Source of the DNA: Elusimicrobiota bacterium
GTDB lineage: Bacteria; Elusimicrobiota; UBA5214; JBBAAG01
Direction: 5' to 3'
DNA: 64,000 nt
Assembly: GCA_041658405.1 (NCBI GenBank)
Contig: JBBAAG010000006.1
Location: forward strand, 6,004 to 70,003
The notes under the pieces were generated by a model. It saw nothing but the letters and a program-made list of their open reading frames with translations. It had not been told where the DNA came from and made no database searches. Positions 10,166-54,134 of this stretch are shown piece by piece (position 1 is the stretch's first letter; each line of letters opens with the position of its first letter). The position numbers and the translations under genes are program-made.

Positions 10166-10190
10166 TTTACTCAAGAAACTCGAAAATATT

Positions 10191-12200
10191 ATGAAAAAAG
10201 TATTGGCGTGGCTATTATTAATATCGGTTTGTGTTACGTGGTCTTCCGCGGCGGAGAATACCGGCGGGTTGCCCGGATACTTTCTTAACCTCGGTATTGG
10301 TACGCGCGTGTTGGGCATGGGCCGCGCGGGGACTGCTGTAGCGGATGATATCAGCGCGTTGTACTGGAACCCCGCAGGGTTGCGACAGATGCGGAATCTA
10401 GAGCTTATGTTTAACCACAACGAGTTGTTTGAGTTGACAAAGTATGAATGTATTGGAGTGGCAGTGCCGACGAAGTATAACTGGTCTTTTGGGTTAGGGC
10501 TAGTCCAAATGTTTTCCCCGGGTACGGTAAAACGTGACTATTTTAATACCGTTACCGGCGAGGTCAGCGACGTTAACAGCGCGTTGTTGTTTTCAAACGC
10601 GTTTTCTGTAACCGATAAATTACAGTTAGGTATTGGGACAAAGGTTGTGAACAAAAAGTTTGACGATATCGACTCCACATGGCTGGGGTTCGATTTTGGC
10701 GCGTTGTATACACTCACGGAAATTGTGAGGGTGGGGTTGGACATACAAAACATTTTTGTTTCAAGTTTCAGGCGTTACGATACCGACTATAAAGCGCCGA
10801 TGATGACTAGGGTTGGGGTGTCGTCCAGTTTGTTGGATAACGCTCTTATACTCACCGCCGACCTTGAACTTACCTCGTCGCAGTATTTGAAAATATATTG
10901 TGGCGCAGAATACCGAGTGTGGAACATTATGATGTTGCGTTTGGGGTACGATAGCAACAACCTTACAGCCGGGTTTGGCGTTGTGGTAAACAACTTCTTG
11001 TTTGACTACGCAATGCTCAGCCATACGTTAGGGTTAAGCCATCGCGCAGCGGTGACGTACCGGTTTGGAAAATACAAAAACATTACTCTCCCGGCCAAAG
11101 TTGATATTATCGTTCCGAAGAAAAAGATTGATTACGCAGTTACGGTTAACACAATGAAAGAAATACCTGTTGCGGTTTACCATTTGTTTGACGCGAAAAA
11201 TGTTGCTGTAACAAGTATCAATATCACTAATAGTACTAAGAAAGAAGTTAAGTTTAGCGTGTCAGCGCGTATAGATATCAAGAAAAGTGATGAGTTCTGG
11301 GAAGTAGTTGTCCCGCCCGGGGAAACAAAAGAACTGAATATTGTTCCATCTCTCACGCGAGAGGAAGTAAGAGCGGTCGAAGTTGTTCCTACTCTTAGCA
11401 AAATATCGGTGGAAGTGTATAAACTAAATGCTAAAGGTAAACCCGCGCTTTTGTTGCATAACATGTTACCCGTTACATTGTTGCCGTATGACCAGTTTGT
11501 CCAGGAAATTGTTGATGCGAAAAACGTGAAGTACGATATGATTGACACGCTTGCTACGTGGGTGACGTATAACGACAGGAGTTTGACGGACGTAATATCT
11601 AAAGCAAGCGAAAAAGGCGCGGCGAGTGTTCCACCGATAAAAATTGTGGGCGTCCAATCCCCTCATTTGTTTACCCGTCCTACTCCGGATTCAAGGTCAG
11701 TAGAAGAAAAGGATCAGGATTATTTAACGCAGGTAAAACTGATTTACGATACGTTAAAAGATAATTACGGGATGACATATATTAACCAGCCGATAGCGTA
11801 TGGTTTCTCACAACGCATAAAGTTGCCGTCTGAAGTGTTGAAGAATAAAGGCAACTGCGTAGAATTAGCAGTGCTGTTCTCGAGCTTGCTGGAAAGTATC
11901 GAGCTGGACCCCATAATATTGTTGTCAATCGAAGACGGCCACGCGGTGGTCGGCTGGCGAGTGGCTGGTGAAGAAAAAGATGTTTATCATTTGATGGAGA
12001 CCAGTTTGTTCGGCGAAGATTTTGATAAAGTGTTGAATCAAGGCAATGCGTTGATCGAACAGTACGGATTACAGCCAGAGTTTGCCGGCAAAATATCCTT
12101 TAACGCTAACGGCGTTTACAAAAAAGACGGCGATGTGTTGGTTTTAGATATTAAAAAAATCCATTCCTTTATTCCACCTAGTCCAAATATTTTGAGATGA
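10191..12200 (+). CDS. secreted fusion protein: N-terminal PorV/PorQ-like (FadL-like) outer-membrane beta-barrel, Ig-like linkers, C-terminal transglutaminase-like Cys-His domain
   Basis: Signal peptide MKKVLAWLLLISVCVTWSSA. GTRVLGMGRAGTAVADDISALYWNPAGL matches the PorV/PorQ family N-terminal signature. The C-terminus KGNCVELAVLFSSLLESIELDPIILLSIEDGHAVVGWRV is a transglutaminase-core Cys...His arrangement. Confidence 0.6.
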   Translation: MKKVLAWLLLISVCVTWSSAAENTGGLPGYFLNLGIGTRVLGMGRAGTAVADDISALYWNPAGLRQMRNLELMFNHNELFELTKYECIGVAVPTKYNWSFGLGLVQMFSPGTVKRDYFNTVTGEVSDVNSALLFSNAFSVTDKLQLGIGTKVVNKKFDDIDSTWLGFDFGALYTLTEIVRVGLDIQNIFVSSFRRYDTDYKAPMMTRVGVSSSLLDNALILTADLELTSSQYLKIYCGAEYRVWNIMMLRLGYDSNNLTAGFGVVVNNFLFDYAMLSHTLGLSHRAAVTYRFGKYKNITLPAKVDIIVPKKKIDYAVTVNTMKEIPVAVYHLFDAKNVAVTSINITNSTKKEVKFSVSARIDIKKSDEFWEVVVPPGETKELNIVPSLTREEVRAVEVVPTLSKISVEVYKLNAKGKPALLLHNMLPVTLLPYDQFVQEIVDAKNVKYDMIDTLATWVTYNDRSLTDVISKASEKGAASVPPIKIVGVQSPHLFTRPTPDSRSVEEKDQDYLTQVKLIYDTLKDNYGMTYINQPIAYGFSQRIKLPSEVLKNKGNCVELAVLFSSLLESIELDPIILLSIEDGHAVVGWRVAGEEKDVYHLMETSLFGEDFDKVLNQGNALIEQYGLQPEFAGKISFNANGVYKKDGDVLVLDIKKIHSFIPPSPNILR

Positions 12201-12277: not shown

Positions 12278-14392
12278 ATGATATTGATACAAACAATATT
12301 GACTGCTGCAGTATTATTATTGACTACAATCTCAGGTTTTGCTGAATCAAAAGATTTTACGTTTATCCAGCTTACTGACGGGCATATGGAAAAAGGCGCG
12401 GTGTACCTATCGTCGACTATTGCCGAGATTAACAAGCTAACACCCGCGCCGGAGTTCGCGGTATTCACCGGCGATTTCGCGAATTACGGAACCGTACGTG
12501 AGTTCGATAAGTATGCGCAGATAATGGATGGACTTAACTATAAGTACTACACGGTTCTTGGTAATCACGAGACACAGAATAACGATGTCGGGTACTATAC
12601 GTACCAGCAACGTTACGGCAGTCCATACCATTCGTTCGACCACAACGGTATCCATTTTGTGTTACTCAACACCGGAGTGTCTTCAACCGGTGCAGGGTTT
12701 ATCACAGCTGCGCAGCTGGAGTGGTTGCGTTCTGACCTACAAAAAATAGGAACACAAATGCCGGTATTCCTGTTCTCCCACCACCTGCCAACGGATAGAG
12801 GTATTGGCAATAACGTGGAGGTTTATCAGGTGATTAAAGATTATAATATCCGCGCGTGGTTCACCGGGCATTTACATGCAACAAGGCATTTTATATGGAA
12901 TGGTATTCACGTGTTGGTAACCAAAGACACGCTTACCTGCGGCTATCGTATCATTCAGGTAAAAGGGGATAAGGTGTTCACTTATAACAAAGAAGTCGAT
13001 AAGCCTGAATCACCGGATAAAGTGGTGATTGGCCTGTATACAAAAAAATCTGCGCCCGAGTACGAACTCATATCTCCGGGGTATCAGGTTGATACTGCAA
13101 CGTCCATTACTTGTGCGGTTAAGTTTTCAACATTAACACTTACCGCAGTGAAAGCGTCCCTTCGCGCGAAGGTGGACCGCGATACAACATACACGCTTGT
13201 GTACTCTACGATAACACAGTTGTGGCAACAAAACATTCCAGTGATTCAGGGGAATCATACGTTGATAATACAGATGGTACTCACTGAGAAAACAACGTTT
13301 TATTCCGGCAACGTAGTGTCTACCGGCACAATAGGGTATATTTGGGAAAAATCTTATAACTTTACCGTCGGAGATAACGCAGTAGCGTGGAAGTACGCAA
13401 CTGGTGATATGGTGATATCAGCGCCGGTGGTTGAAAATGGAAATGTTTACTGCGGTTCAGCAGATGGAACAATGTATTGTTTATCTGCGAGTACCGGCGG
13501 AGTGAAGTGGAAATACGCAACTAACGGCATAATCTCCGGTGATCCTGTCATTTATAAGGACAAACTTATATTTGGTTCTCATGACGGTAATGTTTATGTG
13601 TTGGATAAAACCGCGGGGGCGTTGTACTGGAAATACACGAGTACTGTGCCGGTATATTCCACGCCGGTAGTAGCTGAGTCAAAGGATGGGGATTTTAATA
13701 ACACGCGGATCGTTGTTGCGCATGGAAACGGATTAATAGCAGGGCTTTCCTTTACCGACGGGACGGTATTGTGGCGATACAATACAAAATATGCGGTATC
13801 AATTTGCCCGGCATATAACCGTGAAAACGGTACCGTTTATTTCGGCGGGTGGGATGGGTATACCCGCGGGATTTCTGTTTCCACAGGCGGTGTGGTATGG
13901 TCCCGTCGTATTTATCGCGGAATGTGGGGCGCACCGGGGTCGAACTCGCCGGTGATTGACGGGGATAAACTGTACCTCAACGATATCGGTAAAGTGTACG
14001 CGTTAACCTTGTCCTCCGGCAGTACGGTATGGAGTTCGACTGTTACACATAGCACGTCAAAACCTGTGATTTATGGAGATAAAGTTATCGTATGTTCTTC
14101 TGACAATAAAGTACAGGCGTATGATAAAAGTACTGGCGCGTTGTTATGGCGGGTACAAGCTAAGCATGGGATCCACCGCGCACAACCGGTGATTTACAAC
14201 GATTATCTTGTGATATCCACATCCTGGGGTACGGTACATATTATGAATCCCGATACCGGCAAAATTGTGTATAATTACCAATTATCTGATTATCAGGTAA
14301 CATCAACACCGTGTATAATGTCAGGTAAGCTTTATATTGGCTCTTCTGACAAAAACGTGTATGCGGTTGAGCTTGATAGAATTATGAAGTAA
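12278..14392 (+). CDS. secreted calcineurin-like metallophosphoesterase fused to a PQQ/BamB-like beta-propeller
   Basis: Signal peptide. MPE motifs are LTDGHM, FTGDFANYG, LGNHE and GHLHATRH. The C-terminal PQQ-type repeats include AWKYATGDMVISAPVV, CLSASTGGVKWKY and VLDKTAGALYWKY. 704 aa. Confidence 0.75.
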   Translation: MILIQTILTAAVLLLTTISGFAESKDFTFIQLTDGHMEKGAVYLSSTIAEINKLTPAPEFAVFTGDFANYGTVREFDKYAQIMDGLNYKYYTVLGNHETQNNDVGYYTYQQRYGSPYHSFDHNGIHFVLLNTGVSSTGAGFITAAQLEWLRSDLQKIGTQMPVFLFSHHLPTDRGIGNNVEVYQVIKDYNIRAWFTGHLHATRHFIWNGIHVLVTKDTLTCGYRIIQVKGDKVFTYNKEVDKPESPDKVVIGLYTKKSAPEYELISPGYQVDTATSITCAVKFSTLTLTAVKASLRAKVDRDTTYTLVYSTITQLWQQNIPVIQGNHTLIIQMVLTEKTTFYSGNVVSTGTIGYIWEKSYNFTVGDNAVAWKYATGDMVISAPVVENGNVYCGSADGTMYCLSASTGGVKWKYATNGIISGDPVIYKDKLIFGSHDGNVYVLDKTAGALYWKYTSTVPVYSTPVVAESKDGDFNNTRIVVAHGNGLIAGLSFTDGTVLWRYNTKYAVSICPAYNRENGTVYFGGWDGYTRGISVSTGGVVWSRRIYRGMWGAPGSNSPVIDGDKLYLNDIGKVYALTLSSGSTVWSSTVTHSTSKPVIYGDKVIVCSSDNKVQAYDKSTGALLWRVQAKHGIHRAQPVIYNDYLVISTSWGTVHIMNPDTGKIVYNYQLSDYQVTSTPCIMSGKLYIGSSDKNVYAVELDRIMK

Positions 14393-30393: not shown

Positions 30394-30465
30394 AAAATAA
30401 TCCTTATGTTCTGTTGATACTATAGTTTATAACAAAAAATGTGTTAAGTTGTTATAATATTGATT

Positions 30466-32409
30466 ATGAATATATTTATCGTAGTTATAATTTTACTCTG
30501 TATCCCTGTTACGGGATATACCGCCACGTCAATCGATGCGGATAATACAAATATACAGTATATCGGCCGGATAGATTTTAGTAACCCAAAAAAACCTGCG
30601 TTTGACTGGTCCGGCGCGTATATTTACGCAAGGTTTACCGGTACCTCATGTAAGATCAGGGTACAGGAGCCAATGGCGGATTGTTGGTATAACGTTTTTG
30701 TTGATAACGCAGCGCAGCCGCTGGTTATTGGTTCGACAGTAGCAGCGGCAGTGGTATATCCTGTTGCCAGCGGGCTAGCGGATACCACGCATTCAATACT
30801 TATCACGCGAAGAAATGAAGCGTCACTCGGGAAAACACAGTTTCTCGGGTTTATCCTCGATACTGGGGAGGCATTACAGGCATGTCCCGCGCGTCCCACA
30901 CGGAGGATTGAAGCAATCGGTGATTCAATCACCTGCGGGTATGGCAATATGGGCGCCGCGACGGATACTTTTAAAAAGTCTACGGAAAACAATTATCTTA
31001 CTTACGAAGCAATAGCTGCACGGGCGTTAAACGCAGATTTTACAGTTGTTGCATGGTCAGGGAAGGGTGTTATACGCAACTACGACGATTCAGTAACGGC
31101 TTCCGCTACGCCATTACCTATGTATTATTACCGTACATTGGGGAATAGTGTTAATTCCTCAACCTGGACTTTTATACCTCAACCACAGGTTATTACGATA
31201 CATCTTGGGACTAATGATTTCTCAACTAGCCCGAATCCCAGCCAAACACAGTTTGAGAACGCGTACCTCGCATTTGTCCAACAGATACGGTTAAGGAATC
31301 CTGATGCGCATATCGTATGTATTTACAGTACATTAATAAAAAGCGCGGTCAAGCCGTATATCCAGGATGTGGTAACACAATCGGGGGATAGTAAAGTACA
31401 TTTCGCGGATCTCGGAGTTACGCTTAACTATCCCGCAGACTGGGGTGCCAGCGGGCATCCAAACGTAAGCGGGCATCAGAAAATGGCAAATGCGCTGGTA
31501 CCGTTGATACAAAACTTTTTTGTTGCGGATTCAACTCCGGTTAATACCGCACCGGAAACGCCGTATACACTTACCGGCAGCAGTTATACTCTGACGAATA
31601 CCACCTGCACGTTTAATACTGCCGCCACCGATCCTGATGGTGATAATGTGAAGTACCGGTACGACTGGGGTGACGGAACTACAACGGAGACTACACTGCA
31701 AACTTCTGGAGTAACGGTATCCGTACAGCATTCATGGCCCGCAATCGGGCAGTATAGTGTTAAAACAAAAGCTGTTGATGAGCATAACGAAGAATCCGCG
31801 TGGTCAGCTGTATTAACCGTGAGGGTATCTTCCGTAACGTATTACTGCACTCTCAGCACCTCAATAAACCAGGTTGAGTGGGGATACATAACAAAAACAC
31901 CGGAGAAAAGTGTTTATATTAAAGGTGAACAATTACAACTTACTGCTGTCCCGTCTGAAGGTTATAGGTTCACGAGTTGGTCCGGCGGGGTGACGAGCGA
32001 AACAAATCCATTGACCTTAGCATTGGCTACCAATACCGCAGTAACCGCAAATTTTGAGATCATCATCCAAAGTACTTTTAGTTTAACCATAAATATATCC
32101 CCTACCGGTGCGGGGGCCGTTACAAAACAGCCGAATATGATACATTACTCATCGGGGACTACGGTAACGCTTACCGCAAAAGCGGCAGAGGGTTATGCTT
32201 TTAAAGAATGGGCCGGTGATGTTATGAGTACGTCTAATCCAGTAACGTTTAAGATGTCTTCCCCAAAAACTCTTACCGCCGTATTTGACGTGCGGGCGGT
32301 TGAGCAAGAAGATACTGTAAAACCTGCGGAAGTTCATATCGGTTCAAGCGGGGGTATCCGCAAAAAAATCGGTGAGTTAAAACAAAAAATGTCTTCCACA
32401 GGACAGTGA
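30466..32409 (+). CDS. secreted SGNH/GDSL hydrolase fused to a PKD domain and two divergent InlB B-repeat (Listeria-Bacteroides repeat) domains
   Basis: ATG at 30466 after a TATAAT. Signal peptide. IEAIGDSITCGYG is a GDS(L) motif. KYRYDWGDGTT is a PKD motif. YRFTSWSGGVTSETNPLTLALATNTAVTANF and YAFKEWAGDVMSTSNPVTFKMSSPKTLTAVF are the LBR-type repeats. Confidence 0.75.
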   Translation: MNIFIVVIILLCIPVTGYTATSIDADNTNIQYIGRIDFSNPKKPAFDWSGAYIYARFTGTSCKIRVQEPMADCWYNVFVDNAAQPLVIGSTVAAAVVYPVASGLADTTHSILITRRNEASLGKTQFLGFILDTGEALQACPARPTRRIEAIGDSITCGYGNMGAATDTFKKSTENNYLTYEAIAARALNADFTVVAWSGKGVIRNYDDSVTASATPLPMYYYRTLGNSVNSSTWTFIPQPQVITIHLGTNDFSTSPNPSQTQFENAYLAFVQQIRLRNPDAHIVCIYSTLIKSAVKPYIQDVVTQSGDSKVHFADLGVTLNYPADWGASGHPNVSGHQKMANALVPLIQNFFVADSTPVNTAPETPYTLTGSSYTLTNTTCTFNTAATDPDGDNVKYRYDWGDGTTTETTLQTSGVTVSVQHSWPAIGQYSVKTKAVDEHNEESAWSAVLTVRVSSVTYYCTLSTSINQVEWGYITKTPEKSVYIKGEQLQLTAVPSEGYRFTSWSGGVTSETNPLTLALATNTAVTANFEIIIQSTFSLTINISPTGAGAVTKQPNMIHYSSGTTVTLTAKAAEGYAFKEWAGDVMSTSNPVTFKMSSPKTLTAVFDVRAVEQEDTVKPAEVHIGSSGGIRKKIGELKQKMSSTGQ

Positions 32410-32410
32410 T

Positions 32411-32881
32411 ATGAACTTATACAAAAAAATATGTACTACCGCGGTTCTGGTGTATATCCTCGCAATCCCTTCTTCTGTGGTAGCTGCCTCAAAGATGGAT
32501 CTCGGGGTAACATTAGGTACTTACGGTATCGGCGCAAAGGTTGGGTTTACCAATAATTTTGCAGCGGAACTACGGTATGCACTTGAACCAGATGTGCATA
32601 ACACATCCTTCCGTGGATGTTATTTGTTCTTACAAAATAAGAATTTGTCACCGTTTGCCGGGGTTGAGTACGGGTTGATAGATTTTGTAGCGGAAGATAT
32701 CACGGGTACTGGGAATATGATGAACGCTTTTATCGGGAGTGAATTACGGTTAAAACCCTGGCTTGCATTAAATATTGACCTCGCGTATTCGTATGTCACG
32801 CTTACCTCGGGGGATTATAGTGTTGCCGGGCCGGAATGGTTGTTCAATGCAGGTATTGTGTTTTACCTTAAAACTAATTAA
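32411..32881 (+). CDS. small outer-membrane beta-barrel protein (8-strand OmpA-TM/OMP_b-brl-like)
   Basis: Translationally coupled (TGAtATG) to the upstream gene. It has a signal peptide and alternating amphipathic strands. It is a paralogue of the ORF at 51457-51933 (shared SPFAGVEYG / LPFAGVEVD). Confidence 0.6.
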   Translation: MNLYKKICTTAVLVYILAIPSSVVAASKMDLGVTLGTYGIGAKVGFTNNFAAELRYALEPDVHNTSFRGCYLFLQNKNLSPFAGVEYGLIDFVAEDITGTGNMMNAFIGSELRLKPWLALNIDLAYSYVTLTSGDYSVAGPEWLFNAGIVFYLKTN

Positions 32882-32914: not shown

Positions 32915-35314
32915 ATGAGAGAACAAAAAATGTGTGTTTTAGCAGCGGTATTGGTAGCTTTAACTGTAATACCGGTACTTGCAGCGGATGATGAACCCGA
33001 GGATGTGAGCTCAACAATAACAGCGGCGGTACAACCGGTGAGTATAACAGTATCGGGTGCTGTGTTTATTGACAAAAACGGGAATAATGTTATGGATCCC
33101 GGCGAAAACGGTATTGAAGGTATACAAATAACTGATGGTGTAAGTATTATCCTTACCGGCAAAGACGGGACGTACAAAATCGTTGCAGACTACATAAAAT
33201 CACCGTTTGTATATGCCACCCAGCCTAACGGTTACAGATTCGCAGGGAAGTTTTATACATATATCACAACAGTAACTGCTGTGATGACGTCAAACTTCGG
33301 GATTGTCCCGGTTGAGGGTTCAACCTCACCTGATCATACGTTTGTGCATATAACGGATATCCATATCGGCAGAGGCGGGCTTGGCACTGTTTATGATAAT
33401 GCAGTGAAAGAGATTAACGGATTAACCCCAAAACCTGCGTTTATAACAGCTACCGGCGATCTTGTGAATGCAGGGAAGGATACAAAAAGTTATGAAAAGT
33501 ATGCCGATATCATAAGTAAGTTTAACCTTCCGATATACAACGTTTTGGGAAACCACGATATACCGGTAAAGAATTATGAAATGTTCTTAGGCCCTGCGTA
33601 TTACTCCTTTGATTACGGTACCCGGCATTTTGTTGTGGTCAACTGCAAAGAAGAGAACAGGTATACGCCATGGCTTATGCAGGACCTGGAATTGAATAAA
33701 GACAAAGAAATTGTGGTGTTCCAGCACTACCACCCGGAGAAAAAGTTGCTGGATTTACTGTCAAAATATAACACCAGGGCATTATTATTCGGGCACTGGC
33801 ATTCTACACGGACAATAATGTACGGTAAGATAATGATTATCGCTACACAATCATGGTTATTCGGGGGTATAGACTTTTCACCAAAAGGTTTCCGTGTGAT
33901 AACATTCAAAAACGGTAAATTATCGGCCGAAATTAAGTACTCTGGAATTACGCGCCACGCAGTTATCGCAAGTCCCGCACAGGAAGTTCGGGCAGGTGAG
34001 GATATAGATATACGTGTTAACCTGTACGATACGGTATCCGGTATCGCTGCGGTTGAGGCGAAGATCGATAACGGTAAATCTTTGGTATTAACCCCGCAAG
34101 GCGGATGGTTATGGAAAACCCAGGTACCTGTCCCGGGTAAAAAGTTGTCAACGGGTAAACACATAGTATCTATAAAAGTTCACGGGGTGGATGGTTCAAC
34201 ACTAGGCATGTCTTCTGAGTTTATGATAACTAAAACCCCGGTGGTAACTTCCCCGAAGTTGGTTAGCACAGTGTATGCCGGTAACAATACAGCGTTCTCA
34301 TCACCGGCAATATACAAAAACACAACAATTGTTGGAACACAGGATGATAGGACAGTAGATACCAGCGCAATTGTTGCAGTTGATAACACAGCGGGTAAAG
34401 TTGTGTGGAAGTACGGTACTGACAGTGCGGTCATCGGCAGTGTTGTGATAAACAACGGTATTGCTTATGGTATTTCCGTTACGGGTACGTTGTACGCGGT
34501 AAACGCAGAGGACGGTGTATTACGCTGGAAGTATACATTGAACGCTCCGGAACAGCGCTGGGTATACAATGCTCCGGAAGTAAAGGACGGGGTTGTATAT
34601 TTTGGTGTACCGTCACAGTTTGTTGCGTTAGATGCGAATACCGGATACCAAGTATGGGCATCAACGGGGTTAGGCAGTACGGACTGGATAAGTACGAGGA
34701 TGGCACCGTATAGCGACGGAAAAAATGTGTATATTGCATTTAACTGGCACGGCGTGCTTAACGCTGTGGATAAAACTACCGGGAGTACTGTTTGGCGGTA
34801 TAAGTTCGGCGGGCGGTATACCAGCGCAAAAGTCGCGGAGAACGGTAACTTAATATACTTCACAGCGGATAAAAAATTATACGCTATCGATAAAAGTACA
34901 GGCGGTGTAGTGTGGGCGTACACGGTTAAATCGCTGTGGAACGCATCAGAGCCGGTAGTAACCTCCGACGGGACCGGGCTTATCATCGGTACATCCGATG
35001 GGCAGGTGGTTAGATTAAACACCGCAGCGGGAACAAAAGTGTGGGAGTATCAAACCGGTAAAGAAATCGGGTGTTCATTACCCTACCGCAGTGCGGGTGT
35101 CAGCGCAGTGATGTCCTCACCGTTAATAGTAAATAATATGGTGTATGTCGGTTCAAATGATGGTAATGTTTACGCGCTGGATGCCGGGACAGGTGAAAAA
35201 AAGTGGGGATACACTCTTGGCGTGCCGGTAGTATCAAAACCGGTAGTTGAAGGGGATAAGGTTGTTATCGCAGCTACAGACGGGAATATCTATACACTCG
35301 AACAACCTAAATAG
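32915..35314 (+). CDS. secreted SdrD-B-like domain + calcineurin-like metallophosphoesterase + PQQ/BamB-like beta-propeller fusion
   Basis: Signal peptide. VSGAVFIDKNGNNVMDPGENGIEGIQITDG is an SdrD B-like/CnaB-type motif. MPE motifs are HITDIHIG, ATGDLVNAG, LGNHD and GHWHS. PQQ repeats fill the C-terminal half. It is a paralogue of the gene at 12278-14392. Confidence 0.75.
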   Translation: MREQKMCVLAAVLVALTVIPVLAADDEPEDVSSTITAAVQPVSITVSGAVFIDKNGNNVMDPGENGIEGIQITDGVSIILTGKDGTYKIVADYIKSPFVYATQPNGYRFAGKFYTYITTVTAVMTSNFGIVPVEGSTSPDHTFVHITDIHIGRGGLGTVYDNAVKEINGLTPKPAFITATGDLVNAGKDTKSYEKYADIISKFNLPIYNVLGNHDIPVKNYEMFLGPAYYSFDYGTRHFVVVNCKEENRYTPWLMQDLELNKDKEIVVFQHYHPEKKLLDLLSKYNTRALLFGHWHSTRTIMYGKIMIIATQSWLFGGIDFSPKGFRVITFKNGKLSAEIKYSGITRHAVIASPAQEVRAGEDIDIRVNLYDTVSGIAAVEAKIDNGKSLVLTPQGGWLWKTQVPVPGKKLSTGKHIVSIKVHGVDGSTLGMSSEFMITKTPVVTSPKLVSTVYAGNNTAFSSPAIYKNTTIVGTQDDRTVDTSAIVAVDNTAGKVVWKYGTDSAVIGSVVINNGIAYGISVTGTLYAVNAEDGVLRWKYTLNAPEQRWVYNAPEVKDGVVYFGVPSQFVALDANTGYQVWASTGLGSTDWISTRMAPYSDGKNVYIAFNWHGVLNAVDKTTGSTVWRYKFGGRYTSAKVAENGNLIYFTADKKLYAIDKSTGGVVWAYTVKSLWNASEPVVTSDGTGLIIGTSDGQVVRLNTAAGTKVWEYQTGKEIGCSLPYRSAGVSAVMSSPLIVNNMVYVGSNDGNVYALDAGTGEKKWGYTLGVPVVSKPVVEGDKVVIAATDGNIYTLEQPK

Positions 35315-47191: not shown

Positions 47192-49009
47192 TCATTTGAC
47201 AGGAAATTCAGTAATCCTTAAATTTGTCCATCCGTAAGGGATTAATTCAAGATCTTCAACTTGTTTAGAGTTATTAATTTTTTGGCCTTTAACTTTTACT
47301 GTAACCGGTACTTTTGCAGATTTAAAAACAAAATCATTTATTTTATAATCAATAAATTTTAAATTACTAACATTTTTTTTCATAAGTGCATAATTCCATG
47401 GAGTTGTTGGCCGGATTTCCCAATCAGCATGAGGGAGTTCCCTGTATGGTGTATTTTCATTTATACGTTTCCATTTTTCACCGATTTTTAATGAATAAAT
47501 AATTGGCCCGCGTTTTATTGCTACGGTATTATTCGGTCTTTTCAGAACCTCTGGTTGCATCGGATATTTTAGCGTAATTATAGTCAACCCGCTCCACTTT
47601 TTGTTAATCCTAAAAAAATGGCCGGGTTTCACAGTATCTCCCAGTGTTTTATTATTAACTTTAATAAGTGCTTTCCTGGCCCACGATGGGATTCGTAAAG
47701 ATAAAGGAAATCTTACTGTTTTATCAGTTTTAAGTTTTATTGTTATAGTATCGCTGAAAGGATAGCTTGTTTCTATACTTGCTTCTATCTTACTGCCGTT
47801 GATATTAGTGATTACTTTACTCGGAGCGTAAGCACAAACTGCTAAACCGTTATCTTTTGATTTCATCCATAAATGCGCAGTGAATTTAGGCCATCCCTGG
47901 CTCAGATTTGCGGTACAACACCCGAAGTGAGGTTCTAGCCCAAAGATATTTGCATCAGGCCCGTTTGTTGTCCACACAGGGTTGGGATTTATTACACACT
48001 CAATTTGATTAACCTGCTGATCGTATTGGTGTGCCCACATATCAGGTGAAAATGTTGCGGGTAATGCATTAAACGCAATTAGTTCCAGCCTATCTCCAAA
48101 AACTGTATCTCCTAAAATTGATAATAATATTTCTAATGAATACATATATTCTACAACTGCGCATAGCTCTGTTCCCTGAACAGGATTTAACCCTGCTAAA
48201 CACTCATCACCTGAAAAAACACCTGTAACCATTCCATGATATTTATCAAGTTTATCGATCATCTCATACACTGTTTGTTTGTCAATATTATCGCCGGTCA
48301 TCTGATAAATTAATGCGTGCGACTTTACTGCCATTGCGTTATTCACAACGTGGCCCATGTAATTCCATCCACCCTTGGGTGTTGCTTTTGTTATTGGCCA
48401 GTTTTTAAAGTAATTACCCCAGTTAAAACCCTGAGCATATAATTTTATGGCTAATCTCAGCAGCCAGTCTTCCTTCGTTTTCTGATATAACCAATAAATT
48501 GGTATCAGTGCCTCGAACCATCTGGAATGCGCCCAGTTATTTACTGTGTTTTTGTTTATATGAACATTAATATTCTTACATGCTTTTTTTACTACATCTA
48601 CAATTTTTTCATTTTTGGTTACGTCATAATACTGTGTCAGGACTTTTAACACTAAAAACTGTCCCCATAAATCATAATTTTTGTAATACGGCCCAAGCCA
48701 TCCGTCGTCCTTCTGGTTGGAAATAATATAAGACATGTATTTATTTACTTTATTTATTAGTTTTTTATCCCGTAATAAATAGGCAAGAGGTAGAACACCG
48801 TCCAGCCAGTACGGAGCCCTCTCCCATCCTTCGGCATCACCGCCGAACCATTTACTGTTTTTTATATCAGGCCAAAATTCGTCAACTTTCCCGCTTAAGC
48901 TTTTTGCCTGGAGTTTAAGTTGATTTTTTAACCATCCCGAAGGCTGGATTTCTGTGATTGAAAGCGGAGTAAAAACAGGTTCTTTTATTAGCTTCATAAA
49001 ACTTATCAC
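47192..49009 (-). CDS. GH127-family (DUF1680) beta-L-arabinofuranosidase-like six-hairpin glycosidase
   Basis: 605 aa, cytoplasmic. The GH127 Zn-site arrangement Glu-x-Cys (GTELCAVVE) ... Cys-Cys (HFGCCTANLSQGW) is present. Confidence 0.55.
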   Translation of the reverse strand: MISFMKLIKEPVFTPLSITEIQPSGWLKNQLKLQAKSLSGKVDEFWPDIKNSKWFGGDAEGWERAPYWLDGVLPLAYLLRDKKLINKVNKYMSYIISNQKDDGWLGPYYKNYDLWGQFLVLKVLTQYYDVTKNEKIVDVVKKACKNINVHINKNTVNNWAHSRWFEALIPIYWLYQKTKEDWLLRLAIKLYAQGFNWGNYFKNWPITKATPKGGWNYMGHVVNNAMAVKSHALIYQMTGDNIDKQTVYEMIDKLDKYHGMVTGVFSGDECLAGLNPVQGTELCAVVEYMYSLEILLSILGDTVFGDRLELIAFNALPATFSPDMWAHQYDQQVNQIECVINPNPVWTTNGPDANIFGLEPHFGCCTANLSQGWPKFTAHLWMKSKDNGLAVCAYAPSKVITNINGSKIEASIETSYPFSDTITIKLKTDKTVRFPLSLRIPSWARKALIKVNNKTLGDTVKPGHFFRINKKWSGLTIITLKYPMQPEVLKRPNNTVAIKRGPIIYSLKIGEKWKRINENTPYRELPHADWEIRPTTPWNYALMKKNVSNLKFIDYKINDFVFKSAKVPVTVKVKGQKINNSKQVEDLELIPYGWTNLRITEFPVK

Positions 49010-49170
49010 CTTTTCTGATGTACTATGATATCTAGAGTACTCCCCATTGTCAATACCAGTCTATGAGATGAACAAGATATAGCCGTAGTCGTAATTTCTC
49101 TTTCCTTTTTGCTACTTTTTCCTTTCTCTTTGTTAATTCTGTGCATACTGTGGATAACCCATTTCTGTCT

Positions 49171-49617
49171 TTACTGTTTCGTTCCTGACGACAATAATTT
49201 TATTGACAACGCTTCTGTAAGCATAAGTTTGTCCTCTACTAGCGTTTTGACTTCTTTGAAAACATTTTCGGATCCAAATTTTGTATCCTTATTCTCCTCA
49301 TCACTTCTGCAAGTGGTCACAAAAATATGTTTCCCGATACTTTTCATGTGTTTCCGTATAAACCCGCGTATCGGCGAGACAAGTTGGCCCATCCAGATAG
49401 GGGTTAGGATAATTACCCGGTCATAAGGCGCAGGATCGTGACTGGTACGTTTTGTCATTGTTCCTATACGCATAAGGGAGAGTAAGATTAATAACGGGAA
49501 TAATTTTGGAACTGGTACTATAGCTTCAACATCGCACTGTAGTTCCCGGGCAAGCCGTTTCGCGGCGTATTCATTATTTCCCGTGAATGAATAATAATAA
49601 ACTACCGTTTTTTTATA
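49171..49617 (-). pseudogene. flavodoxin-family protein gene with no in-frame start codon upstream of the flavodoxin N-terminus
   Basis: The ORF track calls an ATG at 49473, but the reading frame is open upstream to a TAA at 49618-49620. The extension (Y)KKTVVYYYSFTGNNEYAAKRLARELQCDVEAIV... is the canonical flavodoxin N-terminus and FMN phosphate loop. No ATG/GTG/TTG precedes it (TAA TAT AAA AAA ACG GTA), and it sits next to an A7 homopolymer. Confidence 0.45.
49188..49345. repeat. direct repeat copy 2 (matches 42349-42499)
   Basis: ...cgttttgacttctttgaaaacattttcggatccaaattttgtatccttattctcctcatcacttctgcaagtggtcacaaaaata... Confidence 0.65.
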
Positions 49618-49671
49618 TTACCACTACTACATTTACACCCGTTCTATTTTGTTGTTACCCGGGAAGTTTCA

Positions 49672-50508
49672 TTACCAATGATAACTCAAACATGGAGACA
49701 GTAATAGTGTTGTAGTAGAACCTGAGTGTACAGTTTCTTTTCCGATGAACAGTTTGGCATCCAGCCTTAAATGCATATTGTGCTTAGCCCAAAACTCAAT
49801 CCCAGTACTCATAATCGGCATAGGACCCTCAACGAATTCGTCATAACTGTATGTATAAGTAAGCCAGTAAGCATGAACTTCGTTATAATACAACCCTGCC
49901 CCAAAATATACCGAGAAATTAGTATCATAAAAAAAATGGTATTTCACAAGCATGGGAAACGAATAATGGCGGTCATTACCGAATCCTGTGTGCCTATATA
50001 TATCATCTGGAAAATAGTTGTATGAATCACTTCGTGTATACGCACTTGAATTTAGTTCAACACCCCAGCCTTTAGGCCCTACAAACTCATAAAATATTCC
50101 AAAACCGTATACGGTAGATGAAGATAAATGAAAAACATCTCCGCCTGCTGTTATTCCTGCTCCCCCGACTTTAAGTTTTATTCCTGTATAGACAACTATA
50201 TTTCCTGGTTCTACACGCCCGGTGTAATTATGAATTACCCTGCCAATAGATTTGTGGGCTTGTACTCTAGTGATTCGCAGTTGCCCAATTTTTGTGTTTT
50301 TATTCCAAATATCGAATACCTGTCTTTTTTCAATGTCGTCCAGCATCCCGCTGCCAACTGTTACAGTTCTCCCATCAACTTCTGTGATTTGTATCTGTTT
50401 AGTTAGACTGGTATCCAATTTTGTGGTACTAATTTCTGCTTGTGCTTTTGTGTTTATACCCACAATAAATATACTACAAAACAGTAATAAAACACATATT
50501 TTTTTCAT
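49672..50508 (-). CDS. outer-membrane beta-barrel protein with N-terminal soluble domain, hypothetical
   Basis: Signal peptide MKKICVLLLFCSIFIVGINTKAQA. The C-terminal half has alternating aromatic/hydrophobic strands ending ...LSYHW. It is co-directional with the DUF3494 gene 26 nt upstream. Confidence 0.55.
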   Translation of the reverse strand: MKKICVLLLFCSIFIVGINTKAQAEISTTKLDTSLTKQIQITEVDGRTVTVGSGMLDDIEKRQVFDIWNKNTKIGQLRITRVQAHKSIGRVIHNYTGRVEPGNIVVYTGIKLKVGGAGITAGGDVFHLSSSTVYGFGIFYEFVGPKGWGVELNSSAYTRSDSYNYFPDDIYRHTGFGNDRHYSFPMLVKYHFFYDTNFSVYFGAGLYYNEVHAYWLTYTYSYDEFVEGPMPIMSTGIEFWAKHNMHLRLDAKLFIGKETVHSGSTTTLLLSPCLSYHW

Positions 50509-50534
50509 TCTTCTAATTCCCTCTATCCCTTGCC

Positions 50535-51413
50535 TTACGGGGCAGGTTGTACAACCGTGTTGGAATCAAGAGTTACCGCAGTCTGCGACAATAATCTGCC
50601 GTTTATCGTTGCACCAGTATTCAGCGTAATTGCTGTTTGTGACAGTATCACCCCTTCAAAATGCGCGGTCGTATCAAGGGATACAGCACCAAAGGCCTGC
50701 CAGAAAATGTTTTTGGGTAGTGCACCGCCAGATAGTATCACATTCTTCGCAGCGGCAATGGTTAGATCTCCCGATATCTGGAAGATCCATACATCGTTTG
50801 GCCCACCCGAGAGCGTAACATCCGTCGGGATTAAAAGACTGGTACCCCATTTATATGTACCCGCGGGTAGTGTCATCCCGCCAATATTTCCCGCACCAAT
50901 TTCGGTAAAATCAGCAGCTCGTCCTGCGGCATTGGTGTACGCAGTTTCCATATTGCTTACAGCTGTTGTCAGGTTAGCAGGGGTTGGAACCGCATAGTCG
51001 GCAGCGTATATCCTTCCAGTAACTTGAGTGGCAATTGAAAATTGATTTGAGACATCCATTGCTTCTGAAAATCCTGTGATACCGATCGCTGCGATGGGAC
51101 TCACTCCGATATTACCAGTGATTGCGGAGGTTGGAATGGTTGAAATACCTGATTTTGATAGAATCACATAATTTCCAGCTGTTCCAAGAACCACTGGTAC
51201 TGGGCCTGCTCCTAAGCCGTCTCTACCCGTTCCGTCGCCTGGAGTTGTTGGGGCGACGATCTTTTCCTTGTTTTTATCTACCACTTTCTTATCCAACTCT
51301 ACCACTTTTTGTTTTATTGCGCCTGTCATACCAAATCTTAAACCTGCAGCAGTTAAAACAGAACATGTAAAAATACAAATCGTAAAAACTAAAAACACTT
51401 TTTCAAATTTCAT
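50535..51413 (-). CDS. DUF3494 ice-binding-protein family (IBP-1 fold) secreted protein
   Basis: The start ATG at 51413 carries a GGAGGAG RBS. Signal peptide. Family-characteristic segments are LGTAGNYVILSKSGISTIPTSAITGNIGVSPIAAIGITGF, LPAGTYKWGTSLLIPTDVTLSGGPNDVWIFQI, KNIFWQAFGAVSLDTTAHFEGVILSQTAITLNTGATINGRLLSQTAVTL. Confidence 0.75.
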   Translation of the reverse strand: MKFEKVFLVFTICIFTCSVLTAAGLRFGMTGAIKQKVVELDKKVVDKNKEKIVAPTTPGDGTGRDGLGAGPVPVVLGTAGNYVILSKSGISTIPTSAITGNIGVSPIAAIGITGFSEAMDVSNQFSIATQVTGRIYAADYAVPTPANLTTAVSNMETAYTNAAGRAADFTEIGAGNIGGMTLPAGTYKWGTSLLIPTDVTLSGGPNDVWIFQISGDLTIAAAKNVILSGGALPKNIFWQAFGAVSLDTTAHFEGVILSQTAITLNTGATINGRLLSQTAVTLDSNTVVQPAP

Positions 51414-51418
51414 TTTAT

Positions 51419-51425
51419 CTCCTCC
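51419..51425 (-). promoter_or_regulatory. Shine-Dalgarno (GGAGGAG) of the DUF3494 gene
   Basis: ctcctcc on the + strand, 5-7 nt upstream of the ATG (51411-51413 complement). Confidence 0.5.
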
Positions 51426-51456
51426 GATAATTATCATATTTCATCTATTACAGCTA

Positions 51457-51933
51457 TCATTTTTTCCCAAAATAATAATTTATTCCGAAATTAACCACGT
51501 ATTCCAAGTCGTTGACAGACTCTGATGAGCCTTTGTCTGTAAGTGATACAATGGCAGGGCCAAAATCTAATTGAACCGAAAAACTTTTTACAAAAAAATG
51601 CTCAATACCGGCAAAAACTTCTCCTGTTATTCCCGTTCCCTCGCTATTGTTTCCCTTAAACGAAGCATAGTCTACTTCCACACCCGCAAAAGGCAGAATT
51701 GTTTTTATAGGCCTAAAATACCAATATCCTCTAAAACCGCCGAGAATAATGTTGTTTTCACTCTGGCTTTTCAGTTCAAGAGATATTTTATCACTTAAAA
51801 AATACCTTACCCCGACTCCCGGATAATTTAATCCTAATCCAATATCACCTTTTACAACTTCTCCATAAACAACAGGTGCAAGAAACAATAAACTACATCC
51901 TAGAAACAAGCAAACCAACTTTTGAGTTTTCAT
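51457..51933 (-). CDS. small outer-membrane beta-barrel protein (paralogue of 32411-32881)
   Basis: Signal peptide MKTQKLVCLFLGCSLLFLAPVVYG. Eight predicted strands. It shares LPFAGVEVDYASF...GTGITGEVFAGIE with the other small barrel and ends in F-rich strands (NYYFGKK). Confidence 0.6.
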   Translation of the reverse strand: MKTQKLVCLFLGCSLLFLAPVVYGEVVKGDIGLGLNYPGVGVRYFLSDKISLELKSQSENNIILGGFRGYWYFRPIKTILPFAGVEVDYASFKGNNSEGTGITGEVFAGIEHFFVKSFSVQLDFGPAIVSLTDKGSSESVNDLEYVVNFGINYYFGKK

Positions 51934-51984
51934 CTAAATAACTTCCTTTACTTTCCTTTGTTTTTAAAACTTCATTCTGCTAAA

Positions 51985-52082
51985 TATAATGATACTTAAA
52001 GCAAAAATATAGATGAATCGGCTGGTTCTGCTTTTGTCTGACTTATTTCTGCTTATTCAGCTGTATTTGATATAATACAACT
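51985..52082 (+). repeat. about 100-nt intergenic element copy 1, containing a conserved hydrophobic mini-ORF (52013-52075: MNRLVLLLSDLFLLIQLYLI)
   Basis: About 85% identical over roughly 55 nt to 62530-62590, with weaker similarity in the flanks. The mini-ORF stop lies 8 nt before the FG-GAP gene ATG at 52083. Confidence 0.5.
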
Positions 52083-54134
52083 ATGAAAGATATTACACAG
52101 AATGACAATTATCCGAAATTTGGATTACCAATACCGCAACCGTTGTTAAGCAATTACGGGCCAATAATGTTTGGCGGCTGCGGCGCAAAGTTTCGTGTAG
52201 TACATTGGCGCAAGAACGGTAAACGCGGTATAATTTGTGGCGGTGTTGGCGGTGCAACAAATCCAATACGGTACTATGAGGAACGACCTAACTCTCGGAG
52301 CGAACTACAGTTTGTTTACATTAAAACATTAGCACCGTACAACCCTGACTACATAACTTACCCGACAGTGATAGACTGGAGTGGTAACGGTACACGCGAT
52401 ATAATATTTAATACACGTAATACTATGCTATATCTCAGCCGCTCGACAAACAATGACGAACTGCCTGATTATGCTCAACCGGAACCGGTTAAAGATATTG
52501 ACGGCATACCTTTTTCTTTTGAATACCACCATCCTGATCACGAGATTGATACCCTTAACGGTTATACTGATGAACGGTACCACAATTATTTATGTACTGA
52601 AGTGTTTGATTGGTATGGAGATGGAGGCCGTGATTTGTTGGTTGGTGACGAAACCGGCGTGATTTGGCTGTTGGAAGATGTTTCACAGGATAGAGGCGAA
52701 CCAAAATACCATAGTGAACATTATACGAAACGTTCACGACGTGATGACCCAACCTCGCCGTCGTACAAAAAATCGCGGTTTGAAGAAACAACCGGGCAGG
52801 TGTTTGCAAAACCAACCCGGATGCTGACAGACATTGACGGCAAAACTATTCGTGTCGGCCATGGTTGCTGGGGCAACGCGAAGTTAGCCGGGTTTTGTGC
52901 GAAACCGAGTATAGTTGATTGGGATAGAGACGGCAACCCTGACCTGTTGATACCCTGTGGTGACCGGAAAGATTCGGAGATAGTGTTTTATCGTAATGTA
53001 GGCAAATCAAAAGACGGGTCACCGTTATTGAAATATGAAGGACAAATCTGTGATTACCAGGGTAACAAACTTGGATTACCGCGGCACGATTTTATTGTTG
53101 TTACTGACTGGTTTGGGAACGGCAGAAACGATATGTTGCTTGGTGATAGAGGACATATAAAGGTTTATAAAAACATTTCAGATGATGCACGGAACCCCAC
53201 TCTAAAATTTGAAAGTTACCTTTGCCAGGAAAACGTGCAGATGGCAATTAACATGAAACTACACATTTGCGATTATAATAACGACGGTAAAAATGATATC
53301 GTTGAAGGCGGGACTGATGGAATGGTAAGGGTACGGTTTAATGTTGGTACAACAACCACCCCGTTATTCTCAGCAGACCCGGTTTTCTTAACTGATGATA
53401 AAGGCAACAAAATCCGTGTTTTTGGCGAGACTGACCCTACTGCGGTTGAGGAGTACGGTGACTCATCACCGTTGGTAACCGACTGGGACAATGACGGCAT
53501 ACCTGACCTGCTGTTAGGCAGTGATACGGGCCATATATATTTCTATAAAGGAATGTTAGATAAAAGCCAAAAATATCCCACCAAATTTGTTGATAAAGGC
53601 AAACTTTGTGATGGGACCGGAAAAATAATTAAAGTTCATAACCGCACGGACATTTGTTTACTAGACATTGACGGTGACGGTACTGACGAACTGTTAATCA
53701 GCGGGGTAACGTACCAGCTAGGACACAAAACTGATACTGATATTGGCGGCGATGTAGTGTACTTCAAAATTGTTGGGCGTAATAGTGACGGTGTACCGAT
53801 ACTATCCGAACGTCAACCGTTCATCGTTGACGGTAAACCCATTAAAATCATGCCAAACCAGAATACACGTATAAAACCCGGCGATTTTAACCACGACGGC
53901 AAAATCGAGCTTTTTTTCTGGTGCAACTCGATGGGTAACAACATAATCCGGTACCGTAATGGTAAAACAGGTTCGCGTGAATGGTATTTTGCGGAAACTA
54001 TTGCCGGCGGGTTCGGCCTCGGAGTACCCGGTGATATAGATAATGATGGGTGGGTAGAATTTGTCTATGGCGGCGGTGAGTCTGGTCGCGGGGTGTACTA
54101 CTCAAACTTCTGGAAAGATAAGGATGTAAGTTAA
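52083..54134 (+). CDS. FG-GAP/VCBS-repeat beta-propeller protein (integrin-alpha-like), no recognisable signal peptide
   Basis: Repeated Ca-binding DxDxDG-type loops: DWDRDGNPDLL, DYNNDGKNDIV, DWDNDGIPDLLLG, DIDGDGTDELLISG, DFNHDGKIELF, DIDNDGWVEFVYGG. 683 aa. Confidence 0.7.
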   Translation: MKDITQNDNYPKFGLPIPQPLLSNYGPIMFGGCGAKFRVVHWRKNGKRGIICGGVGGATNPIRYYEERPNSRSELQFVYIKTLAPYNPDYITYPTVIDWSGNGTRDIIFNTRNTMLYLSRSTNNDELPDYAQPEPVKDIDGIPFSFEYHHPDHEIDTLNGYTDERYHNYLCTEVFDWYGDGGRDLLVGDETGVIWLLEDVSQDRGEPKYHSEHYTKRSRRDDPTSPSYKKSRFEETTGQVFAKPTRMLTDIDGKTIRVGHGCWGNAKLAGFCAKPSIVDWDRDGNPDLLIPCGDRKDSEIVFYRNVGKSKDGSPLLKYEGQICDYQGNKLGLPRHDFIVVTDWFGNGRNDMLLGDRGHIKVYKNISDDARNPTLKFESYLCQENVQMAINMKLHICDYNNDGKNDIVEGGTDGMVRVRFNVGTTTTPLFSADPVFLTDDKGNKIRVFGETDPTAVEEYGDSSPLVTDWDNDGIPDLLLGSDTGHIYFYKGMLDKSQKYPTKFVDKGKLCDGTGKIIKVHNRTDICLLDIDGDGTDELLISGVTYQLGHKTDTDIGGDVVYFKIVGRNSDGVPILSERQPFIVDGKPIKIMPNQNTRIKPGDFNHDGKIELFFWCNSMGNNIIRYRNGKTGSREWYFAETIAGGFGLGVPGDIDNDGWVEFVYGGGESGRGVYYSNFWKDKDVS

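Follow-up and report, generated by a model that had tools for sequence, protein, structure and literature searches.

Cell-bound ice binding is known from the RTX adhesin of Marinomonas primoryensis (PMC5014055, PMC5550230), from a Shewanella frigidimarina protein that joins Ig domains to a DUF3494 domain (PDB 6bg8) and from a PEP-CTERM ice-binding protein (IBP) of Nostoc (PMC7783341). Fixation at the outer membrane by a beta-barrel partner is represented by RcsF, which forms an interlocked lipoprotein/beta-barrel complex with OmpA, OmpC or OmpF (PMC4942254). The locus described here lies in 64,000 nucleotides (nt) of an Elusimicrobiota bacterium (GenBank assembly GCA_041658405.1, contig JBBAAG010000006.1, positions 6,004 to 70,003), referred to below as the window. 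Between positions 49672 and 51933 three co-directional open reading frames (ORFs) on the minus strand encode, in order of reading, a small outer-membrane barrel of 158 amino acids (aa), a 292-aa protein of the DUF3494 ice-binding family (the window IBP), and a second barrel protein of 278 aa. In the sequences compared, the conserved link is that of the upstream barrel with a short peptide tag at the N-terminus of the IBP, and not with the DUF3494 domain. On balance, and without great assurance, we take barrel and tag to form a lineage-specific cassette by which varied cargo is held at the outer membrane, here with an ice-binding domain recruited as the cargo and an unrelated third gene behind it.

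When barrel loci were searched by tblastn, the gene directly 3' of the barrel usually matched residues ~1-60 of the IBP only, and not its DUF3494 domain. The matching region comprises the signal peptide and, after it, the tag, which in the window reads GLRFGMTGAIKQKVVELDKKV; together they make up the first ~45 residues of the IBP. The tag consensus (~21-25 residues) is [LF]-x-[FLI]-G-M-[TP]-G-A-V-K-x-K-V-K-E-L-D-x-K-V, behind a signal peptide ending [AG][AG]G, and it is built of a short alternating hydrophobic stretch, G-x-x-G, and a Lys-rich, amphipathic helix-like segment with a 4-3-4 hydrophobic spacing. Every tagged homologue has the same layout of signal peptide and then tag. A motif hidden Markov model (HMM) made from 36 distinct loci scores the window copy at E = 7e-15, and the HMM of the barrel family (A2) scores the window barrel at E = 4.5e-72.

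A metagenome scan with the barrel-family alignment gave 55 loci. A tagged gene was present 3' of the barrel and on the same strand in 44 of the 52 barrel loci that have at least 250 nt of downstream sequence, the tag lying 57-213 nt past the end of the barrel. Counted as barrel clusters at 90% identity, the linkage is found in 40 of 50, compared with none of 80 loci that have an IBP only (Fisher p = 3e-27), where the tag HMM gave no match. Over ~1.1 Mb of loci all tag matches with i-E < 0.01 fell within barrel loci, and among the top 120 IBP homologues the tag was seen on two Elusimicrobia proteins only. The barrels of the linked loci have diverged to 35-70% identity, and across this wide divergence the loci show a near-obligate barrel-tag linkage while the cargo varies. 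The tag codons vary synonymously among loci; selection therefore acts on the peptide and not on the DNA. The gap between the barrel and the tagged gene is often -16 to +20 nt, which is compatible with co-expression. No Pfam or NCBIfam model covers the tag, neither tag nor barrel family was found described in the family libraries or literature searched, and the partnership of the two with swappable cargo appears undescribed. Two other identities were considered and rejected. The tag is not a pilin-type class III leader, as the hydrophobic core comes before the G-[LF]-x-[FL]-G motif, which is the wrong order; and barrel and cargo are not one split gene, having separate signal peptides and different frames where they overlap.

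In the 158-aa protein a ~24-aa signal peptide precedes a minimal barrel of eight strands and very short loops, whose end reads ...VVNFGINYYFGKK. Hydrophobic N-terminal leaders are present in both barrel proteins (signal peptides judged by inspection). Pfam was equivocal on both, the OMP_b-brl model (PF13505) scoring the 158-aa protein at 17.6 bits and the 278-aa protein at 28.4, just under the cut-off of 28.7. The fold question was settled by AlphaFold2 and Foldseek. Modelled with 45 homologues, the 158-aa protein showed eight strands at a mean predicted local distance difference test (pLDDT) score of 86.9, and its best PDB match was OmpW (E = 9e-5), with NspA, the OmpA transmembrane domain, OprG and OmpX also matched (probability 1.00). 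The 278-aa model, built with 29 remote homologues, has a pLDDT of 86.7; its barrel was closest to the OmpA transmembrane domain (E = 1.5e-7) and also matched Ail, OmpX and OmpW (probability 1.00). By these models both are 8-stranded barrels like OmpW, OmpA and OmpX. An earlier reading of the window, made from its letters and translations (the sequence-only reading), had called both neighbours of the IBP outer-membrane barrels, and in this it was right despite the sub-cut-off Pfam scores.

The family of the 158-aa barrel comprises 45 protein clusters, only one of them with a Pfam assignment, and its named records all come from Elusimicrobia/Elusimicrobiota. Its members end in an invariant ...NYYF followed by 1-3 residues, an aromatic beta-signal. 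The strand pattern assigns many invariant Glu, Asp and Gly residues to positions that face the lumen; conservation of extracellular loops and periplasmic turns differs little (2.6-3.8 and 2.1-2.8 bits, respectively). At two loci (L129 and L130, positions 4956-5472) the barrel homologue matches in two overlapping frames while the downstream tagged gene is intact, which reflects either a frameshift, making the barrel a pseudogene, or an assembly error.

The cargo is diverse. A Pfam scan of 33 distinct tagged proteins found PKD (5 proteins), fn3 (5), PQQ-type beta-propeller (4) and Ice_binding (3) domains; PEBP, CarboxypepD_reg, RGI-lyase Ig and InlK_D3 in two proteins each; and Big_5, CARDB, DUF11 and Lcl_C in one each. 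Judged by these assignments the repertoire is of a surface or adhesin type. A barrel paired with a tagged IBP occurs at four independent loci: the window, L082/83, L141 and L093. The barrel of L141 is cut by the contig end, but terminates ...VVNFGINYYFWK, and the IBP of L093 is merely 49% identical to that of the window. The closest tagged IBP (P0003, 81% identity) is from an Elusimicrobia metagenome-assembled genome (MAG), where the gene directly upstream encodes a protein of 159 aa with 66% identity to the window barrel. In P0003 and in a second protein, P0012, a Big_5 Ig-like domain takes the place of the linker that separates tag and DUF3494 domain in the window IBP.

Outside these loci the DUF3494 domain keeps other company. 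In a genome scan, DUF3494 relatives of 55-73% identity were located at 80 loci spread over many phyla, and neither barrel protein of the window has a relative at any of them. The sequence-only reading had suggested a survey for OMP_b-brl genes next to DUF3494 genes elsewhere; among 102 immediate neighbours of these 80 genes that family was not recurrent, the recurrent Pfam types being Crp-type regulators (7), response regulators (6) and sigma-54 activators (4). It was also observed at these loci that the DUF3494 genes are often tandemly duplicated, and that GH45 proteins (3) and MIP aquaporin-type channels (2) recur among the neighbours.

The same comparison bears on the role of the second barrel. 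The sequence-only reading took the barrel partners to suggest surface anchoring, and it named a lack of joint conservation of the three genes among the grounds for abandoning the idea. Spelled out, that model has both barrels anchoring the IBP, as products of a three-gene operon specific to DUF3494 and conserved as a unit. The ORFs and coordinates of that reading were confirmed, as were the common direction and the short gaps of 43 nt (158-aa barrel to IBP) and 26 nt (IBP to 278-aa gene) which, with the barrel fold of both flanking proteins, speak for such an operon. The 278-aa type, however, has no relative at any of the 58 related barrel loci; at the other loci with a barrel and a tagged IBP the third gene is one for a BON protein, for argininosuccinate synthase or for a 199-aa protein whose function is unknown; the nearest relative of the 278-aa protein is encoded in a group of glycolysis genes, adjacent to another CsgG-like gene and away from any IBP; and the 80 loci from other phyla have no recurrent barrel neighbour. 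A two-barrel operon is already largely refuted by these results, and we give it hardly any credence. Surface anchoring through the barrels, also proposed from the sequence, fares better in one part: a barrel-based envelope anchor is sensible, but the conserved partner is the upstream barrel with the tag, and not both barrels. As a whole that interpretation is partly supported.

The 278-aa protein itself consists of a signal peptide, a small FlgT_C-like beta-domain (aa ~39-100) and the 8-strand OmpA/OmpX-like barrel (aa ~104-278), and like the small barrel it closes with an aromatic beta-signal, ...SYHW. A word-indexed search of 5.8 billion proteins matched it to itself only, and a full HMMER search of 1.84 billion representatives found 33 relatives, the best with 41% identity (E = 1e-44). 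Most of these are ~410-440 aa long, with an N-terminal CsgG/LpoB/TolB_N-like domain (PF03783, over the cut-off), the FlgT_C-like beta-domain and an OmpW/OMP_b-brl-like barrel; the CsgG-like domain is missing from the window protein. A CsgG/LpoB/TolB_N-like domain is also fused N-terminally to divergent barrels of the 158-aa family (L120, L124, L126, L127, L134-136) or encoded nearby (L113/L114, 2405-3626). Since the same domain accompanies both barrel families, the two barrels of the window probably belong to one wider superfamily of CsgG_N-like domains with 8-strand barrels. The 278-aa gene encodes a separate barrel, perhaps co-transcribed at this locus, and is not part of the cassette.

A second candidate cassette lies elsewhere in the window and has the reverse gene order (Table 1). 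A 649-aa CE2/GDSL esterase with PKD and InlB-B repeats ends ...VHIGSSGGIRKKIGELKQKMSSTGQ, and its stop codon is 2 nt ahead of the ATG of a gene for a 156-aa protein paralogous to the small barrel. The tag HMM matched the last 42 residues of the esterase at E = 4e-5. In the N- and C-terminal versions alike, the motif is at whichever end of the cargo faces the barrel gene, so the tag seems usable at a C-terminus too. If the C-terminal motif is real, its position at the barrel-facing end would argue for a self-contained docking module and not for a chain threaded through the barrel. No further A2-family paralogues were present at any locus examined, no upstream gene at the 58 barrel loci ends with a tag, and a scan of viral_contigs with the 156-aa paralogue gave no matches. 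Two paralogous proteins with metallophosphatase and PQQ/BamB-like beta-propeller domains are encoded at 12278-14392 (+) and 32915-35314 (+). The latter is directly 3' of the second cassette; its signal peptide is of the ordinary kind, and it lacks the tag. Elsewhere, PQQ-type propellers recur among the tagged cargo.

In the mechanism that we favour, the first gene would supply a minimal 8-strand barrel to the outer membrane, and the product of the second would be exported by Sec and, once its signal peptide is cleaved, start with the ~21-25-residue tag, (G)LRFGMTGAIKQKVVELDKKV. The tag would dock non-covalently onto or into its partner barrel, probably during barrel assembly, and the docked cargo would stay tethered to the outer membrane instead of diffusing off. 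A lumen lined with Glu and Asp, as the strand pattern and the model suggest, would complement the basic tag. The cargo is interchangeable in related genomes, which have PKD, fn3, Ig-like, beta-propeller or esterase domains in this position; at the present locus and at least three others a horizontally mobile DUF3494 domain has been fused behind the tag. The IBP would become cell-bound in this way, either an ice adhesin or a coat that structures ice locally. Given such an anchor, surface display seems somewhat likelier than not, because the cargo is of adhesin type and an ice-binding domain, which needs external ice, has been recruited repeatedly. The fuller proposal, that Elusimicrobiota possess a protein-display system in which a minimal 8-strand barrel captures a ~21-25-residue tag at either terminus and presents interchangeable cargo on the surface, is put forward tentatively and at less than even odds.

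Several points weigh against this picture. An 8-strand barrel is too narrow to accommodate a helix or to let a folded domain across, and the tether may be periplasmic, or the cargo may be bound again after secretion. The C-terminal variant of the tag is a single, weak instance, with E = 0.9 in a six-frame search of the whole window. Mutual information between barrel and tag, calculated with average product correction on 33 pairs, gave top pairs that track subclades, so phylogeny dominates. The restriction of the barrel family to one lineage is based on six named records only. Co-transcription of the three genes is suggested solely by their spacing; counts in a promoter/terminator scan of 49000-52300 were not above those of shuffled sequence. 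Finally, the sequence of a DUF3494 protein does not reveal whether it binds ice.

The tag might instead work without the barrel, its amphipathic Lys-rich helix attaching to lipopolysaccharide, phospholipid or peptidoglycan or acting as a sorting signal for other machinery; the barrel gene would then be adjacent only because it is inherited with signal peptide and tag as a single recombination 'handle' for cargo swapping. The periplasmic CsgG/LpoB-like domain on divergent family members, by which the barrels may have a role of their own, speaks for this. We nevertheless think this improbable, since the linkage is nearly obligate between barrels of 35-70% identity, selection is at the level of the tag peptide and not of the DNA, and the tag-like motif is found at the other end of the cargo in just the case where that end adjoins the paralogous barrel gene. 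The linkage does not by itself separate a docking site from a dedicated export or assembly factor, for which the tag would be the recognition signal and from which the cargo would be released, as in a miniature two-partner or type V-like system with no permanent anchor. Cargo of extracellular type (an IBP must get outside to meet ice) and a tag at the terminus nearest the barrel gene, in N- and C-terminal versions, speak for export. Barrels known to conduct proteins, however, are built of 12-16 or more strands, or else assemble into oligomeric channels, whereas the window barrel has eight strands and very short loops, its interior is predicted from the strand pattern to be full of conserved polar side chains, and Pfam and NCBIfam found no POTRA or two-partner secretion (TPS) domains. 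Export by the barrel is accordingly given little likelihood.

The IBP domain was identified with high significance. Pfam Ice_binding (PF11999) matches the 292-aa protein at E = 2.6e-73 (246.6 bits, cut-off 28.7) over profile positions 1-207 of 208, and 25 PDB sequences, from ice-binding, antifreeze or DUF3494 chains, are matched with E <= 1e-3. Foremost among them is 9lhs_A (E = 4e-79, residues 69-287); 4nu3_A, named 'ice-binding protein', is ~60% identical over 217 residues (74-290; E = 5e-73), and the solved ice-binding and antifreeze proteins match residues 69-290 at E = 4e-79 to 1e-57. The family assignment of the sequence-only reading is fully borne out, and the segments it quoted, GTAGNYVILSKSGIST, DVWIFQI and KNIFWQ...GVIL, are all found in the IBP. 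Its claim of a match over the whole length stands for aa ~71-292 but not for residues 1-~70 (signal peptide, tag and linker), which are outside the model. The NCBIfam model NF045625 (IBP_CFB) gave 249.1 bits against a curated cut-off of 400. By these sequence-level scores the window IBP is a clear DUF3494 member, ordinary for the family, and no equivalog of the CFB-group protein. GC content is 0.476 in the DUF3494 domain (0.39 at third codon positions, GC3) compared with 0.36-0.39 (GC3 0.28-0.31) in the tag and the two barrel genes, which is consistent with recruitment of a mobile domain; amino-acid composition also contributes. A literature search found no paper for PDB entries 9lhs, 9li0, 9lhn or 9lhr, and none that mentions Elusimicrobia together with ice-binding.

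In the IBP-1 family the ice-binding sites are not defined by conserved residues. The domain could serve here as a generic beta-helix adhesin or a carbohydrate-binding module, a matter independent of how it is anchored. The adhesin-like or enzymatic nature of other cassette cargo and the sub-cut-off IBP_CFB score (249 against 400 bits) would fit such a role. The ~60% identity to 4nu3 over 217 residues and the matches to 'antifreeze protein' entries at E = 1e-57 to 1e-66 argue for ice binding, as do the many close homologues from MAGs with glacier, permafrost, Antarctic or groundwater isolate names, habitat being judged by the names only. A function other than ice binding is on this evidence unlikely, though it deserves to be kept in mind.

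The start of the IBP gene required some attention. An alternative in-frame ATG upstream, at 51437, would give a 300-aa protein. The 292-aa form is preferred because its ATG, at 51413, is preceded at a distance of 7 nt by a Shine-Dalgarno-like GGAGGAG, and because its signal peptide and N-terminus are common to the IBP homologues. The locus was found again on an 89-kb metagenome contig in ENA (L001), where the 292-aa form is called. The NCBI protein for the same gene (P0007, 210 aa, MILSKSG...) is truncated N-terminally and is without signal peptide, tag and the start of the DUF3494 domain. It is an example of the mis-called starts that the tag exposes, which makes the tag useful in annotation. 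Coordinates are given in Table 1.

Table 1. Coordinates of the features of both loci in the window. Basis, evidence by which the feature was delimited.
Feature	Position	Strand	Basis
Small outer-membrane barrel gene (158 aa)	51457..51933	-	ORF
DUF3494 ice-binding-family gene (292 aa)	50535..51413	-	ORF
Signal peptide of IBP, aa 1-24, MKFEKVFLVFTICIFTCSVLTAAG	51342..51413	-	hydrophobic core then A-A-G; read by inspection
Conserved tag of IBP, aa ~25-48, LRFGMTGAIKQKVVELDKKVVDKN	51270..51341	-	motif HMM
Low-complexity linker of IBP, aa ~49-70, KEKIVAPTTPGDGTGRDGLGAG	51204..51269	-	beyond PF11999 and PDB alignments
DUF3494/IBP-1 ice-binding-like domain, aa ~71-292 + stop codon	50535..51203	-	PF11999
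Second barrel gene (278 aa)	49672..50508	-	ORF
CE2/GDSL esterase-PKD gene (649 aa; PKD + InlB-B repeats)	30460-32409	+	domain content
Tag-like motif, C-terminus of 649-aa esterase, VHIGSSGGIRKKIGELKQK	32332..32388	+	motif HMM
Paralogous small barrel (156 aa)	32411..32881	+	A2 family HMM E 7e-23

Other genes of the window were noted in passing. A 683-aa FG-GAP/VCBS-repeat protein (52083-54134, +), with no obvious signal peptide at its called start, is divergent from the barrel-IBP unit and has a 149-nt intergenic region in common with it. About 200 nt downstream of the 278-aa gene is a 100-aa ORF (49171-49473, -) with a weak Flavodoxin_5 match in precomputed annotation, which may be a gene remnant. 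At 4556-12200 (+) a gene for a 1869-aa Kelch-repeat protein is followed by one for a 669-aa protein with weak UPF0164/FadL-like matches, and the two may represent a further case of a large surface protein coupled with one of the outer membrane.

For the study of IBPs the locus offers a testable case of a horizontally acquired DUF3494 domain perhaps made cell-bound, in a diderm beyond the well-studied phyla; whether the protein is anchored or free decides between an adhesin and a secreted ice-structuring agent. For envelope biology, 40 non-redundant examples of the barrel-tag linkage, with swappable cargo, suggest a compact form of outer-membrane addressing without lipidation. A display system of this kind, if true, would be functionally analogous to autotransporters or to lipoprotein-barrel complexes, but 'split' and addressed by a tag, with the IBP as a barrel-anchored ice adhesin, and if docking is real, the ~25-residue tag and 135-residue barrel would make a very small portable surface-display module.

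As is usual in the DUF3494/IBP-1 family (PF11999; 4nu2/4nu3, 3uyu, 3vn3, 3wp9, 9lhs), the window protein has a full-length domain behind a signal peptide, but between the two it has an additional tag and linker, both beyond the reach of the family model, and, set against the 80 loci from other phyla, only the window gene type pairs with a small barrel gene. Both barrels resemble the 8-stranded proteins OmpW, OmpA (transmembrane domain), OmpX, NspA and Ail (PF13505) in fold and N-terminal signal peptide. They differ from Pfam OMP_b-brl members in scoring under the cut-off, the 158-aa protein by being minimal with very short loops, and the 278-aa protein by adding the FlgT_C-like beta-domain, to which its relatives add the CsgG/LpoB-like domain.

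Like the cell-bound IBPs of M. primoryensis, S. frigidimarina and Nostoc, the window protein as proposed would carry an ice-binding module on a device that retains it at the envelope, and P0003 and P0012 of Elusimicrobia also insert an Ig-like (Big_5) spacer. The proposed anchor, however, is not an RTX plug of a type I secretion system, a lipobox or PEP-CTERM, but an N-terminal tag with a separately encoded barrel. With type V secretion the cassette has in common the genetic coupling of an outer-membrane beta-barrel and a passenger that varies, and a short linker or helix segment beside the barrel; the order barrel-then-passenger is reminiscent of inverse autotransporters, and passenger-then-barrel, as in the second cassette, of classical ones. 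It differs in having 8 strands and not 12 or 16, and separate polypeptides each with a signal peptide; no POTRA, TPS or autotransporter matches were given by Pfam or NCBIfam in the cassette proteins, which places them outside type V. A likeness to the proposed docking is seen in RcsF, where a short segment near the N-terminus of a Sec-exported protein joins a barrel during assembly, which fixes the protein at the outer membrane and permits surface exposure. RcsF is lipidated and uses general porins, whereas a lipobox Cys is not conserved at the cleavage site of the tagged proteins (consensus ...AAG, followed after cleavage by LRFG), and the cassette would use a dedicated barrel encoded next to its cargo. 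The window has each element of the proposed barrel and terminal-tag cassette: an A2 barrel, a same-strand gene behind it, a signal peptide and then the tag.

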